DNA of 64,000 nt, taken from Candidatus Fermentibacterota bacterium (GTDB lineage: Bacteria; Fermentibacterota; Fermentibacteria; Fermentibacterales; JCC-6). The position numbers were made by a program, and so were the translations under genes. Under the pieces are notes generated by a model. That model worked only from the letters and a program-made list of their open reading frames with translations. It was not told the DNA's origin and did not search any database. The DNA lies in the NCBI GenBank assembly GCA_030609965.1, contig JAUWSQ010000004.1, forward strand, positions 217 to 64,216. The letters are read 5' to 3'. Numbering within the stretch: position 1 is the stretch's first letter; each line of letters starts with the position of its first letter. Of the stretch, positions 748-61,209 are shown piece after piece.

Positions 748-1659
748 CTACAGAGTTGCTGTACCTGGATACAGTGTCAGAGCAGCGGCTACCGTAACAA
801 CCCACAGCAGGATATTGATAAGGAGAGGTTTGTCCTGCAGAAGCAGCTTGTCAGGGCTTCCGCCATGACCCTTTATATGGATAAGATAAAGGTATCTGAA
901 GACTCCATAAGTTACAAATGGAATGGTCAGCCAGAGTCTGGTGGAAACCAGCTCTAAAGTTCTTTCGCTGACAGTGTAGATGGAGTAGCCGATGATACTT
1001 GCCGCTGTAGCTATTCCCATCATTTCATCGAGCAGTGGGATGCTGTACTCCTCCAGGCTCTTCCTGTGGCTGGCTGCATCCTCACCAAGTGAGATGACCT
1101 CTGAGCGTCGTTTAGCGAAGGCCAGAAAAACAGCAAGAAAGAAGGTACATACGATAAGCCAGTAAGATATAGATACCTCGGTGTATCCAGCATCTATTGC
1201 GAGTGTTACCCCTGCTATTGCCCTTAGAACGAATCCAGCGGCTATTATAAGAACATCGAGAATAACGATGTGCTTCAGTTTTAAGGAATAACATAGCTGC
1301 ATCACAAAATAGATAGTGAGAATTACTGCGTAAGTCGGTGCCAGTATGTATGATCCTAGAAGTACACCCGCTGCGAGCAGAGCAGCTGCGATAGCAGCTG
1401 CAGGAACCGGGAGTGCTCCGGATGCTATTGGACGATCCTTCTTCTCGGGATGGCTGATGTCATTTTTCCGGTCAATAATATCGTTTAAAAGATATACCGA
1501 ACTTGAGAGCAGACAAAATCCCAACGCCCCAAGAGCGGTTATACCCACCGCTTCCGGATCGTTCCAGAGATTTGCGAAAAGAATCCCTGCAAAGACAAAG
1601 AGATTCTTCGTCCAGGATCTTATTCTAAGACTGCGCAGGAGAGCTGAAAACCTGTTCAT
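748..1659 (-). CDS. UbiA-family decaprenyl-phosphate phosphoribosyltransferase
   Basis: WTKNLFVF, YLLNDIIDRKNDISHPEKKDRPIASG, LAFAKRRSE motifs; multiple TM helices. Confidence 0.85.
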   Translation of the reverse strand: MNRFSALLRSLRIRSWTKNLFVFAGILFANLWNDPEAVGITALGALGFCLLSSSVYLLNDIIDRKNDISHPEKKDRPIASGALPVPAAAIAAALLAAGVLLGSYILAPTYAVILTIYFVMQLCYSLKLKHIVILDVLIIAAGFVLRAIAGVTLAIDAGYTEVSISYWLIVCTFFLAVFLAFAKRRSEVISLGEDAASHRKSLEEYSIPLLDEMMGIATAASIIGYSIYTVSERTLELVSTRLWLTIPFVTYGVFRYLYLIHIKGHGGSPDKLLLQDKPLLINILLWVVTVAAALTLYPGTATL

Positions 1660-1883
1660 AATCAGTATAATAACTCATGGGGCTATGATCAAACAGCCGA
1701 TCCGGTTGATACTCGGGGATTTGTTCTTTCGATAACTTACTCCCGGTAATTTTAGTATATTATCATCGTCATAGTTGCTCTGATTTATAGTTATTCAATT
1801 TAGATGTCCCCGGGACTGTTCAGTCCGGTTTACCAGACACACGATTTCTCAGCAAGTATTCTGTCTGAAACTGAAAGGCTGCT

Positions 1884-3944
1884 ATGCGAACAGTGCTGAT
1901 TCTGCTGATATCCATCTTCTCTTTGCTTGCGGCGGAGCAGTATACAATTCAGGAATTCGGTAATTCTCAGAATGGGAAAATAGAAACCCTTCTTGAACAG
2001 CCTCTCCTGATCCGAGTAACTGACTCCCGCAGCCAGCCCGTTGCTGGAGTAGCAGTGGAGTTCGGAATTAATTCAGATGAAGGCACACTTGCGTTTCCTT
2101 TTGAAGGTGAAAACCCTTTTATACTGGAAGGCGATACAGTATCGGGAGCCTTTTCAGCAGTGCTTGTCCATACGGATTCTGATGGGTATGCAGCTATTTC
2201 ACTGATGCTGGGCAGCACCACCAGCAATAATAAAGTTGAAGCACATGTATTTCTTCCAGATGGTTCGGAGGAGAGGGTTCATTTCTCTGCGCTGGCTGTT
2301 GATTTGCAGAGTATCATCTTCCAGATTCTTGGCGGTCTGGCAATTTTCCTGCTCGGTATGAAGATGATGTCAGAATCCCTTCAGACCGTAGCTGGAAACA
2401 GGATGAGGAGCATACTCAAAAGGGTAACCAGCAACAGAATGCTGGGACTGATGGCTGGTGCTCTTATGACAGCAGTCATTCAAAGCTCCAGTGCCACTTC
2501 AGTTATAGCAGTGAGTTTTGTGAATTCCGGTCTGATAGTTCTAAGGCAGGCCGTTGGTGTAATTATCGGTGCAAATATAGGTACAACCATCACAGGCCAG
2601 CTGATAGCCTTCAAGTTAACGCACTACGCCCTGCCCATAGTCGCAATCGGTTTCGCCATGTACGCCTTCGCTAAAACTCAGCGTATTCAGTTCTGGGGTA
2701 AGGTTATAGTCGGTCTGGGTCTTATTTTCCTCGGTATGACACTTATGAAGGATGTTCTTAACCCTCTTAAGACCAGTCTGGCTGTGCAGAACTTTTTCAT
2801 GAATTTCAGTACAAACCCTCTGCTGGCGATACTGGCCGGAACAGTTCTGACATCTATTATTCAGAGTTCAAGTGCTACGGTTGGATTAACCATGACGCTT
2901 GCCGGAGCCGGACTGATTAATCTGCAGGGGGCTTTCTACCTGGTTCTTGGTGATAATATTGGTACAACCGTCACCGCCCAGCTCTCCGCCATTGGCGCAA
3001 GTAGAGCAGCTAAGCAGACGGCCATGGCGCATACGCTTTTCAATGTAATTGGTGCTGTATACATGGGCTTGCTTATATCCAACAGCAGCGGTTTCGTTCT
3101 TAATTTCGTCAGATCTACTTCGGGTGATTCCCTGAGACAGGTGGCCAACGCTCATAGCATGTTCAATATTTTCAATGCGCTTCTCTTTTTGCCACTTGTC
3201 CCATTCCTGGCGAGATTGTGTCGATTCCTTATTCCAGACAGGGAGGAAGATAAGACCGACGAAGTTGAACTTATACTTGATGATAATCTTCTGGATTCTC
3301 CCGCCCTTGCAATTGATAACCTTGAACGTGAGATGGTCAAAATGTCCAGTTACGCTGAAGCCACAGTCAAAGGGGCTATATCCTGCTTTTTCAAAGGTCA
3401 TCCAAAATCGAACAGGATAATGTCCATGGAGGATAGAGTAGACTACATGCAGCGGGACCTCACCATCTATGCCTCAAAACTGTTCCAGCGCAATCTTGAT
3501 CAGAAACAGTCATTGAAACTGCCTGTTATCATTCATACGATAAATGACCTAGAAAGAGTATCGGACCATGCAGTTAATATCGTTGAAGCCCGGAACAGGA
3601 TATCCGGAACCTTCAAAATGGAACAGGGAGAACTGCCCAGGGCAGCTGAAACTGCAGCGAAGATCATAATCAAAATGCTTGCCTCCACAAGATTATCTCT
3701 TGAATCTCATGACAGAGAATCCGCCCATGCAGTCCTTACTCTTGAGTCAAGGCTCAACAGGCTCGAGGACGATGCCCGAAGAAGCTATACCGACTGCCTT
3801 ACCAGTAATGGGGAGGACGGGTTGAAGAGGCTTGCGCTGCTTGATTTTATAGAATATTGTGAACGTATTGGTGATCACCTCACAAACATAGCTCAATCCC
3901 TTGTTGGTGGAGGGGTATGGCATGGGACCGACGACATTCATTAA
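1884..3944 (+). CDS. Na/Pi cotransporter with C-terminal PhoU-like domains and an N-terminal signal peptide plus Ig-like domain
   Basis: Two QSSSAT repeats, GANIGTT/GDNIGTT, DLERVSDHAVNI and ERIGDHLTNIA PhoU motifs. Confidence 0.9.
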   Translation: MRTVLILLISIFSLLAAEQYTIQEFGNSQNGKIETLLEQPLLIRVTDSRSQPVAGVAVEFGINSDEGTLAFPFEGENPFILEGDTVSGAFSAVLVHTDSDGYAAISLMLGSTTSNNKVEAHVFLPDGSEERVHFSALAVDLQSIIFQILGGLAIFLLGMKMMSESLQTVAGNRMRSILKRVTSNRMLGLMAGALMTAVIQSSSATSVIAVSFVNSGLIVLRQAVGVIIGANIGTTITGQLIAFKLTHYALPIVAIGFAMYAFAKTQRIQFWGKVIVGLGLIFLGMTLMKDVLNPLKTSLAVQNFFMNFSTNPLLAILAGTVLTSIIQSSSATVGLTMTLAGAGLINLQGAFYLVLGDNIGTTVTAQLSAIGASRAAKQTAMAHTLFNVIGAVYMGLLISNSSGFVLNFVRSTSGDSLRQVANAHSMFNIFNALLFLPLVPFLARLCRFLIPDREEDKTDEVELILDDNLLDSPALAIDNLEREMVKMSSYAEATVKGAISCFFKGHPKSNRIMSMEDRVDYMQRDLTIYASKLFQRNLDQKQSLKLPVIIHTINDLERVSDHAVNIVEARNRISGTFKMEQGELPRAAETAAKIIIKMLASTRLSLESHDRESAHAVLTLESRLNRLEDDARRSYTDCLTSNGEDGLKRLALLDFIEYCERIGDHLTNIAQSLVGGGVWHGTDDIH

Positions 3945-58098: not shown

Positions 58099-58335
58099 TT
58101 ATTCCGAATTGTGCCGGAATAGTTCCTCGCTCATCGGTTTCATTGCTGTAATGGAGAAGATGAATTCAATCGGGAAACCGAAGTATTCACTTATCCGGAA
58201 AGCAAGGTCGAGGCTGGGATTGTATTCCTGTCTTTCCATGTAGCCTACGGTCTGGAAATTGACTCCTATCTGCTCTGCAAGCTCTTTTCTGGAAATACCC
58301 CTCTCCAGCCTGAGGGCAGCTATCCAATTTTACAC
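58099..58335 (-). pseudogene. XRE-family HTH regulator with stop at codon 2
   Basis: GTG TAA then NWIAALRLERGISRKELAEQIGVNFQTVGYMERQEYNPSLDLAFRISEYFGFPIEFIF. Confidence 0.8.
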
Positions 58336-58336
58336 T

Positions 58337-59248
58337 CTAAGCTCCCCTGAATACTCCGGTGGAAAGGTATCTGTCACCGCGGTCTGCCACAAGCACTACC
58401 AGTGTTTCGCCGGGGCTCATGTGGCTGGCCACCTCCACAGCTGCACTTACTGCAGCACCACCGCTCATTCCCACAAACAGCCCCTCTTTCAGAGCCAGCT
58501 CTCTTGTCATTGAGAAAGCATATGAATCGGATTTACTGATGATGCGGTCAAGACGATTCTCATCATAGATTCCCGGTATTGCTGATTCTTTCATATTCTT
58601 CAAACCCTGAATGCTGTGACCTATCTCCGGTTCTACTCCGATTATCTGAATATCTTCTGAGAACTCCTTCAATCTGCGACTGACTCCCATTAGCGTTCCC
58701 CCGGTACCCATTCCGGCGACAAAAGCGTTTACTTTACCGGAAGTCTGCCGGATGATCTCCGGAGCAGTGGATTCGTAATGACTCAACCAGTTAGCAATAT
58801 TACTATATTGATCCGGCATGTAGAACTTATCCGGATCCTCAGTCAGCATCTGTTCTGCAAGAGTAATTGCTCCGTCTGTTCCCCGCTCTCCTGGCGTTAG
58901 AATCAACTCAGCTCCGAAAGCCTTAAGAATGTCTCTTCGTTCCACACTGACACTTTCGGGAAGCACAAGTCTGATCTTGTAGCCCATTGCTGCCCCAATC
59001 ATTGCCAGACCAATACCAGTGTTCCCTGATGTAGCTTCCAGTATTGTTTTCCCTCTGTAAAGAAGTCCTCTCACCTCAGCATGCTTTACCATCCACAGGG
59101 CCGATCTGTCCTTTACTGAACCACCCGGGTTTGAGCCCTCCAGTTTCACAAGTATTCTGGCGCTCCCCTCCGGGGCTAGGTGTTTGAGCTGTACAAGTGG
59201 TGTATTTCCGATTGAGCTCAAGATCCCTTCAGCATAATTACCCAACAT
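58337..59248 (-). CDS. cysM: Cysteine synthase (CysM/CysK family)
   Basis: IGNTPLV, NPGGSVKDR, EATSGNTG, GTGGT, HSIQG, DRGDRYLS; ATG 59248 after GGAG. Confidence 0.92.
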   Translation of the reverse strand: MLGNYAEGILSSIGNTPLVQLKHLAPEGSARILVKLEGSNPGGSVKDRSALWMVKHAEVRGLLYRGKTILEATSGNTGIGLAMIGAAMGYKIRLVLPESVSVERRDILKAFGAELILTPGERGTDGAITLAEQMLTEDPDKFYMPDQYSNIANWLSHYESTAPEIIRQTSGKVNAFVAGMGTGGTLMGVSRRLKEFSEDIQIIGVEPEIGHSIQGLKNMKESAIPGIYDENRLDRIISKSDSYAFSMTRELALKEGLFVGMSGGAAVSAAVEVASHMSPGETLVVLVADRGDRYLSTGVFRGA

Positions 59249-59266
59249 GTTACTTTCTCCAAACGC

Positions 59267-59295
59267 AAAAAATCCCACGACCTTCCGGCCATGGG
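59267..59295 (-). terminator. Attenuator terminator upstream of cysteine synthase
   Basis: CCCAUGGCC-GGAA-GGUCGUGGG-AUUUUUU. Confidence 0.85.
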
Positions 59296-59323
59296 CAACT
59301 GTAATCGAATGTTTTAAACTAAT

Positions 59324-59407
59324 TTACATTACAAACGCCTCCGCCGATGCAGGAATGTCGGCGGCGCAACAAAAGAATACTTCGTTGTGGTTTGTATTTC
59401 TCATCAT
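59324..59407 (-). CDS. Cys-Cys leader peptide (27 aa)
   Basis: MMRNTNHNEVFFCCAADIPASAEAFVM*; TGT TGC at 59371-59366. Confidence 0.8.
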   Translation of the reverse strand: MMRNTNHNEVFFCCAADIPASAEAFVM

Positions 59408-59414
59408 GGAAGCA

Positions 59415-59443
59415 ATTCTAGATAACTGGACCATGTTTGTCAA
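59415..59443 (-). promoter_or_regulatory. Sigma70-type promoter of the cys leader
   Basis: TTGACA-17-TAGAAT, 7 nt before the leader ATG. Confidence 0.85.
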
Positions 59444-59448
59444 AAAGA

Positions 59449-59507
59449 GACCTTTCTATCAAAAAGCTCGAACTTTTTCATTAAGTGGTTAAAGAATGTC
59501 GCTGCAG
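59449..59507 (+). repeat. 59-bp direct repeat, copy 1 (att-like)
   Basis: 55/59 identical to 63527-63585. Confidence 0.9.
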
Positions 59508-59550
59508 AAGTGGTATATCCCTAACGGTGTATTATGCTGAAATAGAGTGA

Positions 59551-59625
59551 AAAAGCGTGAAAACATATTATATTTCCACTACAATTTACTGTATTGTTGT
59601 CAAAAGCGTGAAAATATGTTAAATT
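59551..59625 (+). promoter_or_regulatory. fic promoter with direct-repeat operator
   Basis: AAAAGCGTGAAAA at 59551 and 59602; TTGTCA-17-TAAATT 59597-59625. Confidence 0.55.
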
Positions 59626-59631
59626 CAAGTT

Positions 59632-60534
59632 ATGGGAAAAGTGATGAGTGTCTATAAAAAAATCGATTCATTGAGAGAGCGGTATTATCAATCTGCTCGC
59701 AACAAGGATTCTTTGCTTAAACTTATCAGTGAAGTAGAGGTTGCAGAACAGGTCTATAATTCAAATGCTATTGAAAACAGTACCCTTAGTTTGGAGGAAA
59801 CTGAGAAAATACTCCTTCATCTCGATTTAGACCGCTATGTCTCCGAACGCGAAATATTCGAAGCCAAGAACTTGGCGCGAGTAGTTACATACATAGACAC
59901 AAAAGCTAAGCAGCAGGAACTGAACCTGGAAATGATTCTGCTTTTGCATAGAATGTTGATAACGAATATTCACGATGATATAGCAGGTCGGTTCAGGAAA
60001 AATGATGAATGGGTAAGAGTTGCAAACCATATCGCTTGTGATCCTGAAAACATTATATGTAAACTTGAAGATATGTTCATCAAATGCAATTCTTCGGTGA
60101 ATGAGAGTATTATAAGGAGAATTGCTGTCTTCCACCTCAGTTTTGAACACATCCATCCGTTTGTCGATGGTAATGGGAGAATAGGAAGGGTGCTTAACAA
60201 TTATTTATTGATCCGCGAAGGTTATGTACCAATAAACATTAAATACATCGACCGTACGTTGTACTATGATGCTTTTGAAGAATTTGATAGAAATATCAGT
60301 AGTTCGATTATGGAAGAAATAGTTGGGAAAGCAATTACCAACAGTTATCATAAACGATTAGCCTATCTGGATGGAATGGATATCATTACTCTTAATGAAT
60401 ACGCAAAGCAGAATAATCTTTCGCATTCGAATTTAATCAATAAAGCCAAACGGCAAACCATTGAAGCTTTCCTGGAAAAAGGAGTATGGAAAATAGGTAA
60501 TCCAAGCGATTTCGCCATATCTATGCTGAACTGA
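59632..60534 (+). CDS. Fic-family protein (class II)
   Basis: HPFVDGNGRIGR; inhibitory SNAIEN motif; AT-rich. Confidence 0.93.
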   Translation: MGKVMSVYKKIDSLRERYYQSARNKDSLLKLISEVEVAEQVYNSNAIENSTLSLEETEKILLHLDLDRYVSEREIFEAKNLARVVTYIDTKAKQQELNLEMILLLHRMLITNIHDDIAGRFRKNDEWVRVANHIACDPENIICKLEDMFIKCNSSVNESIIRRIAVFHLSFEHIHPFVDGNGRIGRVLNNYLLIREGYVPINIKYIDRTLYYDAFEEFDRNISSSIMEEIVGKAITNSYHKRLAYLDGMDIITLNEYAKQNNLSHSNLINKAKRQTIEAFLEKGVWKIGNPSDFAISMLN

Positions 60535-60687: not shown

Positions 60688-60954
60688 CTATGTGAGATTT
60701 CTATAAACATCCTTGCGATGACCAACCTTAACGATAAGAATAATCAATCTTACTGTATGTATCTCATAGATAATACGATAATCTCCAGAGCGAATTCTAT
60801 GAAAAGAATTCTTCCCTTTCATTTTGGTTGTTTTCGGGTCAGGTAGATTGTTACTAAGCTCCTCAATTCTCTTCTTGATTCGAACTAAGTCACGTTTTGG
60901 AAACCGTTTAAGGTTTTTCAGAGCAGCAGGTCTGAATTCAATGGAATACGCCAT
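60688..60954 (-). CDS. relE: RelE/ParE-family toxin
   Basis: YSIEF, KMKG, RIRSGDYRIIY, VGHRKDVY. Confidence 0.9.
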   Translation of the reverse strand: MAYSIEFRPAALKNLKRFPKRDLVRIKKRIEELSNNLPDPKTTKMKGKNSFHRIRSGDYRIIYEIHTVRLIILIVKVGHRKDVYRNLT

Positions 60955-60957
60955 TGA

Positions 60958-61209
60958 TCAGAGACCTAGAGATTTCCACACTTCATCAGCTGATATATTT
61001 TCTCCAGGCTCAGCTAAAGCTGCTATGGCATCTTCAATATCCAGATGTTCTTCGATTCTTTGAAGCAGTTCAAGTTCAGTAATGGATACGATTGCAGCGA
61101 TGCTCTTGCCTCTACGAGTCAATACGATAGGTTCATTACCGTAAGCAACCTTGTTTATTATATCTGAAAAATTCATTCTTGCATCGGCAGTCGAAATAGT
61201 CTCAGGCAT
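60958..61209 (-). CDS. Phd/YefM-family antitoxin
   Basis: ISTADARMNFSDII, LTRRGK..AAIVS; directly upstream of toxin. Confidence 0.9.
   Translation of the reverse strand: MPETISTADARMNFSDIINKVAYGNEPIVLTRRGKSIAAIVSITELELLQRIEEHLDIEDAIAALAEPGENISADEVWKSLGL

Follow-up and report, generated by a model that had tools for sequence, protein, structure and literature searches.

How might an uncultured bacterium adjust the synthesis of cysteine to the supply of that amino acid? The question is raised by a cysteine synthase gene (P0001, here called cysK) on the minus strand of a 64,000-nucleotide (nt) stretch of contig JAUWSQ010000004.1 from a Candidatus Fermentibacterota bacterium (assembly GCA_030609965.1); this whole stretch is called the window below, and all coordinates refer to it unless another locus is named. 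The gene is preceded by a leader of about 200 nt in which a near-consensus promoter, a 27-codon upstream open reading frame (uORF) with two adjacent Cys codons, a hairpin and an intrinsic terminator follow one another. We consider it probable (at roughly 0.78) that this leader acts as a ribosome-mediated, that is leader-peptide, attenuator of transcription, by which the cysteine synthase gene is regulated in response to charged tRNA-Cys. The mechanism itself is a textbook one, established for Trp, His, Leu, Thr, Ile/Val and Phe, and what would be new is that a canonical terminator and a leaderless start are joined with specificity for cysteine. A first-pass annotation of the window had already read the leader by the logic of trp and his attenuation, and the parts, their spacing, their conservation and the folds of masked nascent RNA described below fit that logic.

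All the parts named in the first-pass annotation, i.e. the promoter, the uORF with its Cys-Cys pair, the hairpin between segments 1 and 2 (1:2), the terminator (3:4), and the ribosome-binding site and ATG of the structural gene, are present on the minus strand at the positions it had assigned to them (Table 1). Its promoter and terminator were also recovered independently by a consensus scan of a 3-kb stretch, in which the promoter, with 11 of 12 consensus matches, is the top of nine promoter-like sites and the terminator, with nine pairs, is one of two terminator-like sites. A cmscan search of positions 58800-59900 against Rfam, with E-values up to 10, found no relevant family, T-box and S-box included; the sole matches were two chance snoRNAs with E >5, far under their gathering scores. 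The whole arrangement exceeds chance, because it recurs in 19 distinct sequences.

Table 1. Parts of the cysK leader, with comparable leaders elsewhere in the phylum (last two rows, numbered within their own loci)
Feature	Position	Strand	Basis or remark
-35 box TTGACA	59438..59443	-	direct reading and consensus scan
-10 box TAGAAT, spacer of 17 nt from -35 box	59415..59420	-	direct reading and consensus scan
uORF start codon AUG, predicted transcription start (leaderless)	59405..59407	-	7 nt (TGCTTCC, pyrimidine-rich) after -10 box
Leader peptide uORF MMRNTNHNEVFFCCAADIPASAEAFVM, 27 codons plus TAA (59326-59324)	59324..59407	-	translation of the open reading frame
Putative regulatory Cys codons UGU UGC, codons 13-14	59366..59371	-	direct reading
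Segment 1 CCGCCGA, begins 2 nt past the Cys codons	59358..59364	-	complementary to UCGGCGG 59347-59341
Segment 2 UCGGCGG AGGCG UUUGUAAU	59328..59347	-	partner of segment 1 or segment 3; reaches the uORF stop codon
Segment 3 AUUACAG U UGCC CAUG GCCGG	59285..59305	-	overlaps terminator 5' arm and loop; nascent-RNA fold with segment 1 masked
Intrinsic terminator CCCAUGGCC-GGAA-GGUCGUGGG (59295-59274), then AUUUUUU	59267..59295	-	9-bp stem, GGAA loop
Shine-Dalgarno sequence GGAGAAAG of the structural gene	59253..59260	-	direct reading
Cysteine synthase gene P0001 (CysK/CysM subfamily), 303 aa, ATG at 59248	58337..59248	-	TIGR01136
Class B leaders: L141, L007, L008, L009, L010, L143, L142, L145	upstream of the PLP gene; in L145 ~2400-2700 (strand as in L145)	-	
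Candidate Trp leader of G047, L195	uORF 1385-1546; terminator (GC hairpin and U-run) ~1571-1600; gene 1625-3013		

In the mechanism that we propose, a sigma-70-type promoter would start the RNA at the AUG or one base before it, and the 27-codon uORF would be translated without any 5' leader. When Cys-tRNA is plentiful, the translating ribosome would reach the UAA and cover segment 2, leaving the terminator 5' arm free, as this arm would likewise be if no ribosome were loaded and the 1:2 hairpin formed; with the arm free, the 9-base-pair (bp) hairpin and U-run would form and transcription would stop before cysK. When Cys-tRNA is scarce the ribosome would stall at UGU UGC and cover the adjacent segment 1, and the free segment 2 could then pair with the emerging segment 3. 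CCC and GCCGG in the 5' arm would in this way be sequestered ahead of the synthesis of the 3' arm, and RNA polymerase would read through into cysK. The distances in the leader suit such a scheme. If a ribosome is assumed to shield about 12 nt on the 3' side and 18 nt on the 5' side of the first base in its A site, one that has either Cys codon in that site covers segment 1 (leader nt 44-50), and one at the UAA (nt 82-84) covers almost the whole of segment 2 (nt 61-80) and leaves segment 3 (from nt 103) uncovered. By this reckoning the geometry of the leader is the trp layout.

Comparison with relatives shows which parts of this leader are maintained. The sample of orthologues was anchored on the protein and not on the leader, 600 nt being taken upstream of every orthologue in 70 genomes of the phylum. 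Orthologues of cysK with 62-84% identity are present in 12 of these genomes, at 13 loci (besides the window's own genome they are G059, G060, G051, G053, G056, G052, G049, G064, which has two loci, G063, G061 and G048), and the leader arrangement is common to all 13. A metagenome scan, using a pattern in which segment 2 and the terminator were fixed and the uORF, Cys codons and segment 1 left free, gave 12 loci, five of them unrelated terminators and seven of them family members, every one of which has the Cys pair in frame. The pooled leaders comprise 22 loci and 19 distinct sequences. Conservation of the Cys codons in relatives had been named beforehand as a check on the attenuator, and CC or CCC stands in frame in all 19, at 30, 33, 36 or 42 nt from the ATG, each distance a multiple of 3. 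In an alignment of 17 leaders (A1) the ATG, TGTTG, UCGG, UGUA at the stop codon and CCC..GCCG.AA.G..GGG are invariant, and the sixth base of the Cys codon pair is T or C only, i.e. its changes are synonymous. The two long-spacer leaders L108 and L137 are outside A1 and the pair counts, as their roughly 90 extra bases are unalignable, and are kept in the per-sequence folds; L133, which contains a run of N, is kept in A1 and dropped from the folds.

On the 5' side of the hairpin no amino-acid feature other than the Cys pair is invariant (19/19), and this pair lies a fixed 1-2 nt from segment 1, a spacing free of gaps throughout A1. Elsewhere the peptide is poorly conserved: its N-terminal half varies in length, its conserved C-terminal residues (A-D-I ... 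S-A-x-G) coincide with the two strands of the 1:2 hairpin, and one-base insertions or deletions shift the frame after the hairpin in some members while the RNA motifs are kept (L148 and L154 compared with L152 and L146). This pattern points to selection on the start, the frame, the two Cys codons and the RNA helices, and not on the peptide. A second Cys pair near the end of some leaders (the G048 and G063 types) was considered as a conserved coding feature and rejected, since the same one-base changes in L148 and L154 move it out of frame and leave the RNA motif in place. That the 27-residue peptide has a function of its own, perhaps as a small Cys-containing product made along with the cysK enzyme, would agree with a conserved short frame and an invariant Cys-Cys, but a poorly conserved and length-variable N-terminal half, a C-terminal half that changes frame, and conservation that follows the RNA helices make this view hardly credible.

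The start of the uORF is equally constant. The first-pass annotation had noted an ATG 7 nt after the -10 box with no ribosome-binding site, and this bears out in all 19 leaders, where the gap is 6-7 nt, pyrimidine-rich, without a purine-rich stretch and without room for such a site. The -35 box is exactly TTGACA in 11 of the 19, the others matching 3-4 of its six bases, and the -10 box is TAGAAT, TAGCAT, TAGGAT or TAGATT in every case; the search expression required TAGNWT, then 6-7 nt, then ATG, yet no orthologue locus fails it. Given this spacing, with pyrimidines before the A and no purine-rich stretch, a transcription start at or beside the AUG is predicted and would be the only simple reading of the leader.

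RNAalifold applied to A1 returns exactly two helices, the 1:2 hairpin and the terminator. Over both, 95.9% of cells are paired, compared with 28-46% when the partners are slid by 1-3 columns, and three pairs show two-sided changes, one in 1:2 (CG in 10 leaders, UA in 6) and two in 3:4 (GC in 11 and AU in 6; GC in 12 and AU in 5). The covariation score of the two helices is 0.267, compared with 0.195 +/- 0.015 in shuffles, none of 500 of which reaches 0.267. We take the compensatory pairs to be real, though the kinship of the sequences inflates the independence of these figures. The 1:2 hairpin by itself has seven bp, is 94.9% paired and contains one of the compensatory pairs; the one-sided changes in its lower four pairs are on the segment 1 strand. 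Both stems drawn in the first-pass annotation are in this way kept in relatives.

The structural gene's Shine-Dalgarno sequence lies outside all of the conserved helices. This bears on control at the level of translation, as in mycobacteria, in which a ribosome on the uORF would expose or hide the ribosome-binding site of cysK and the hairpin would be an element for RNA stability or processing. The experimentally tested Cys uORFs that we found in the literature searched work in that manner, going by the accessible text of 10.1101/834739, and weak pairing of the U-run with the purine-rich Shine-Dalgarno sequence is possible in the fold of the window's leader. Against this, the Cys codons lack complementarity to the Shine-Dalgarno region and are not paired with it in the window's folds, the spacer from terminator to gene ranges among members from about 20 nt to several hundred nt, and the hairpin is a canonical intrinsic terminator (9-bp GC-rich stem, GNAA loop and U-run) conserved with covariation. 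We regard translational control as highly improbable here.

The same data bear on a switch that needs no translation, in which a metabolite, a protein or a tRNA selects between 2:3 and 3:4 and the short reading frame is incidental. Translation of the uORF is a prediction, leaderless starts are uncommon in the window's genome, and a constraint on RNA suffices for the conserved part of the peptide (A-D-I ... S-A-x-G), which overlies the strands of 1:2. Such a switch gives no reason, however, for an ATG held 6-7 nt from the -10 box in every one of the 19 leaders, for length changes between ATG and Cys-Cys that are confined to multiples of 3, or for Cys codons that change only synonymously; nor is there conserved structure for a ligand pocket beyond two simple hairpins, or a match to any Rfam family, those of T-box and S-box among them. 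An unrelated leader before paralogous genes, described below, shares with the cysK leader solely the Cys codons and a terminator. A translation-independent switch therefore seems to us very unlikely.

The attenuator also calls for an antiterminator, and the first-pass annotation had proposed one between segments 2 and 3. When nascent RNA is cut after the terminator loop and a ribosome is placed on the last Cys codon, the minimum free energy fold is a three-part 2:3 helix in 11 of 11 leaders, made up of an outer helix UCGGC/GCCGR, a middle pairing of a G-run with CCC and a variable inner helix; in the window this fold is the pairing that had been proposed. Releasing the 5' arm of the terminator has an ensemble cost of 7.7-18.4 kcal/mol (mean 11.8) with the ribosome stalled at Cys, 0.7-7.9 kcal/mol (mean 3.7) with the ribosome at the stop codon and 0.7-6.8 kcal/mol (mean 3.8) with segment 2 locked in 1:2. 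This cost is greatest in the stalled state in all 18 leaders, the three values for the window being 9.8, 4.3 and 6.7. Variation is distributed in a matching way. No change is seen in the bases with double duty, which are UCGG in segment 2 together with CCC and GCC in the 5' arm of the terminator; their partners in segment 1 and in the 3' arm, each with a single duty, are variable. At the centre of the 5' arm, three bases would lie in an internal loop of 2:3, two of them covarying with the 3' arm. This pattern of conservation fits a switch.

Several results weigh against the attenuator as proposed. The 2:3 helix is without covariation, its outer helix being invariant and its middle and inner parts pairing in only 58% of cells in the window's register, as the register differs from one subgroup to another. 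Dinucleotide shuffling of the sequence upstream gives a fold of equal stability in 24 of 200 cases for the window, and only 10 of 18 leaders beat 95% of their own shuffles in fold stability; the pairing probability of the 5' arm tops 95% of shuffles in one leader of 18 and is indistinguishable from them in the other 17, because base composition is enough for the G-rich segment 2 to pair with the C-rich arm. The full-length leader retains its terminator at equilibrium even with segment 1 masked (10 of 10 leaders). The genome uses Shine-Dalgarno sequences: in a crude count over the ATGs of 1462 long open reading frames, Shine-Dalgarno-type motifs peak sharply 4-8 nt upstream and -10-like hexamers are not enriched at 6-7 nt, and leaderless initiation would therefore be an exception in this organism. 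Among sequencing runs, none of RNA was listed as containing this stretch, and three metatranscriptome runs contain almost none of its sequence words. The 19 leaders are kin, and their counts overstate independence. Finally, a distant homologue in genome G042, the gene of which is 53% identical and the leader of which is matched by our covariance model R1 with E 0.006, has MTRTSHRTARSCSRADIADPAGMSIT, with a single Cys codon in C-S; its 1:2 hairpin is of different sequence (AGCCGGG/CCCGGCT) and its terminator is poorer.

Since the terminator wins at equilibrium with segment 1 masked, a purely thermodynamic switch was rejected, and the switch would have to be kinetic, with 2:3 forming while the 3' arm is still to be transcribed. 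The E. coli trp leader is alike in this respect, its terminator being thermodynamically stronger than its antiterminator and its folding order kinetic. In masked folding, another check named beforehand, the nascent folds behave as the model requires; the full-length RNA at equilibrium keeps its terminator. The 2:3 pairing put forward in the first-pass annotation stands as the minimum free energy fold of nascent RNA with segment 1 masked, but it has no covariation to support it and is not clearly above shuffles. We regard the antiterminator as plausible, conserved in layout and not established by covariation or shuffling, which makes it one of the weakest links in the proposed attenuator.

Further evidence on cysteine as the signal comes from other leaders in the phylum. 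A second group of CysK-like enzymes dependent on pyridoxal phosphate (PLP), 33-38% identical to P0001 and with a PALP domain, is found in eight genomes at an identity of at least 47% to the L145 protein, and in G025 at 43%. At 8 of 8 loci examined its genes are preceded by what we call class B leaders, each made up of a short uORF, in which there are 2-4 Cys codons, and downstream of it a terminator of the form ..CCCGCC-loop-GGCGGG-U-run (the window's leader and its family being class A). Their peptides include MTSDCCGDAM, MLYSCCERMD, MAICCCGRTG, MMIASAFCCCRESTVTG and MINCLCCYCVKGGTAGA, and in most loci a copy of the terminator 3' arm starts at or beside the stop codon. In five of six parsed leaders, freeing the terminator arm costs 8.6-13.8 kcal/mol with the ribosome at the last Cys codon and 0.2-2.5 kcal/mol with it at the stop codon; the exception is L007, with 3.1 and 6.2 kcal/mol respectively. 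Class B shares nothing with the window's leader except Cys codons and a terminator, which argues that the Cys codons are the sensor. In G025 there is a long uORF containing ..CTCSRA.. and no evident terminator, and a third cysK-like gene, in G044 (44%), is without a uORF. Between the terminator and the PLP gene, class B loci contain a further small open reading frame with a C-T-C, T-C-T-C or CxCxCxC motif (L145 2273-2518, minus strand; examples are MFYGTEEYTCTCTGKN.., ..QAFTCTCPPPADP.. and ..SEPCACPCACGGGG..), which may encode a small protein, act as another leader or have arisen by chance.

Model R1 also picked up a candidate Trp attenuator in G047, a member of the window's family, in which a uORF with WYWWY, ending ..DSGWYWWYHISAAGGEGPPD, and a terminator precede the gene for anthranilate synthase component I (trpE; Pfam Chorismate_bind and Anth_synt_I_N). 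A Trp-codon leader with a terminator before trpE suggests that leader-peptide attenuation is in use in this lineage. In the window's own genome, a scan for other leaderless uORFs with terminators gave four matches, of which only the Cys leader is convincing.

These leaders also bear on whether cysteine is sensed at all. The cysK leader might report coupling or the capacity for translation in general, or be a constitutive partial terminator that sets low expression, with no specificity for cysteine: it has two Cys codons only, and one in the distant homologue of G042, and its terminator is favoured at equilibrium in every state. But the Cys pair is the sole invariant amino-acid feature before the hairpin, at its fixed distance from segment 1, the downstream gene makes cysteine, and the class B leaders of the paralogues are also rich in Cys as the trpE leader of the relative is rich in Trp. 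A general sensor of this kind is in our view distinctly improbable, and we infer that the leader would respond to cysteine through its charged tRNA.

The leader can be set beside known systems. In E. coli trpL and Salmonella hisL the logic and anatomy are the same, with two regulatory codons just 5' of segment 1, a stop codon where segment 2 ends, and downstream a gene for biosynthesis. The cysK leader differs from them in concerning cysteine, in having no sequence or Rfam relation to them, in controlling a single gene, in belonging to an uncultured phylum and in its uORF, which has no Shine-Dalgarno sequence, lies 6-7 nt after the -10 box and is hence predicted to be leaderless. T-box and S-box leaders bind tRNA or S-adenosylmethionine directly, with no need of translation. 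They likewise control sulfur amino-acid genes by premature termination in Firmicutes, and the T-box also reads tRNA charging; here there is no Rfam match.

Cys-codon leaders themselves have precedents. In mycobacteria, as the accessible text of Canestrari et al. (10.1101/834739) describes, leaderless poly-Cys short open reading frames, Ms5788A and others, precede genes of cysteine biosynthesis and sense Cys-tRNA through ribosome stalling; control is translational, with base pairing between the Cys tract and the Shine-Dalgarno sequence of the gene that follows, and uORF-mediated attenuation for cysteine is stated as not previously described. The window's leader resembles these in its uORF (here predicted to be leaderless), its consecutive Cys codons and the biosynthetic gene that follows, and, compared with what that text reports, differs in its intervening conserved terminator, in the position of the Cys codons in mid-frame, in the lack of pairing between Cys codons and Shine-Dalgarno sequence and in having no sequence relation. 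Mycobacterial Cys uORFs are cited only as translational attenuation in the part of PMC13236596 that we could consult. In Deinococcus deserti a leaderless 10-residue peptide with two Cys precedes cysS, its transcription start is mapped and transcription attenuation is predicted (de Groot et al. 2014, PMC4007540, from the sections available). The likeness to our leader lies in a 5'-AUG uORF with two Cys codons and in the predicted attenuation, and the difference in the gene, which is for a tRNA synthetase there and cysteine synthase here, in the phylum and in the absence of sequence relation; those sections describe no terminator, alternative helices or conservation analysis. In Actinobacteria, short open reading frames with runs of Cys codons precede cys operons or cbs, and the retrievable text of Seliverstov et al. 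(2005, PMC1262725) calls them 'without obvious terminators' and suggests Rho dependence, in contrast to the canonical and covarying terminator here. Naville and Gautheret (PMC2965389) mention no Cys leader in the portion of their text that could be searched. A terminator-type Cys leader before a cysteine synthase gene was not found in the literature searched, to the extent that these sources were accessible, and within that scope the remark in the first-pass annotation that no intrinsic-terminator version was known in such a lineage holds, the nearest cases being the mycobacterial uORFs and the D. deserti cysS leader. Also new, if the class B leaders act as predicted, would be two unrelated Cys leader designs in one phylum.

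How the leader is distributed would fit its travelling with its gene. Similarity between loci starts at the -35 box, and what lies further upstream is of four kinds or more (a divergent Fic gene in the window, the end of one recurring gene at seven loci, and other genes in L129/L130 and L132/L133), so the conserved unit appears to run from promoter through gene. Model R1 has 16 matches in 15 of the 70 genomes, namely the 13 orthologue loci, a remnant in G021, the G042 homologue and the Trp leader of G047; it found no second copy in any of the 70 and no Cys leader before other genes, and the leader is therefore gene-specific and not the marker of a regulon. In the window's own genus the cysK gene is present in one of 25 genomes. 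The remnant, in another genome of that genus (L106, G021:C189 ~1625-1824), consists of the 3' part of the leader (segment 2/3), the terminator, a ribosome-binding site and a nine-codon open reading frame, with neither uORF nor cysK. Travel of class A leader and gene together would explain this patchy distribution of one genome in 25 and a decayed remnant in another. A wider proposal, that two unrelated designs of Cys attenuator, class A with its leaderless start and three helices and class B with its stop codon beside a copy of the terminator 3' arm, serve two paralogous PLP enzymes in the phylum, that stalling at Cys codons is the general and perhaps the only control of cysteine synthesis in it, and that class A and its gene travel as one self-contained cassette of promoter, attenuator and cysK, is one that we hold tentatively, at somewhat short of even odds.

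Among the matches listed in a protein scan of genome contigs there is one close relative, L019 (74% identity), with a leader identical to that of G052 from the window's family, and at least 79 loci from other phyla with 55-61% identity. No equivalent uORF was found in the 79 listed loci of other phyla. Some short open reading frame with C-x0-1-C occurs in 14 of the 79, and of the five of these 14 that were inspected only an archaeal one looks meaningful: in L086 (a Methanosarcinales metagenome-assembled genome, ~2850-3000) a 25-codon uORF, MKRNREINKKNITKKLVSYSCFCCC, ends 28 nt before the ATG of a cysK homologue (57% identity), possibly a single case of an archaeal poly-Cys uORF.

The protein encoded by the structural gene scores 375 bits against the NCBIfam model cysKM (TIGR01136; cut-off 344), and is under the equivalog cut-offs of CysK and of CysM alike. 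The source genome (G000) is of 2.6 Mb in 81 contigs and is 80.7% complete. Neither it nor any of five relatives that carry cysK-type genes (G051, G052, G049, G061 and G044) has a serine O-acetyltransferase above the cut-off of TIGR01172, the best score being 44 bits compared with a cut-off of 211. Since none is above cut-off, the substrate of these cysK-type enzymes may be O-phosphoserine or another donor.

If our reading is correct, the classical design of the terminator-type attenuator extends to cysteine, filling its 'missing' entry, and can operate from a leaderless uORF even where the host relies on Shine-Dalgarno sequences for its other genes. For annotation, the 27-codon open reading frame and the class B uORFs would be regulatory leaders and not hypothetical proteins, and Cys leaders could show which of the PLP enzymes in these uncultured fermenters truly serve the synthesis of cysteine, with the caveat of the serine acetyltransferase just mentioned. 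With a consensus promoter and a length of about 200 nt the element is a compact part, and if it works it might serve as a reporter of cysteine or of tRNA-Cys charging.

Some features of the loci are recorded as observations. The divergent Fic/DOC gene adjoining the window's cassette is at 59632-60534 (plus strand), and a pair of ParE-type toxin and Phd-YefM antitoxin genes lies nearby at 60688-60954 and 60958-61209 (minus strand); together with the presence of the gene in one of 25 genomes of the genus, these neighbours suggest that the cysK region is mobile or newly acquired. Seven nt past the cysK stop codon there is an HTH_3 (XRE-type) frame at 58102-58329 on the minus strand (Pfam, 51.6 bits), with no ATG, GTG or TTG between an in-frame TAA (58332-58330) and the domain, and it may accordingly have a rare start codon (ATA or CTG), be a damaged gene or reflect a sequence error. 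The cysK orthologue of G048 (L139/L146, G048:C21) aligns as two fragments that lie in separate frames (residues 64-138 and residues 141-303), and looks frameshifted behind an intact leader in a genome that is 71% complete with 6% contamination. In G061 and G063 (L137 and L108) the spacer between terminator and cysK is about 140-400 nt long, T-poor and A/G/C-rich, and contains repeat units of the type ..GCAAACCCGCGGUAAGCAAG.CAGGAG...

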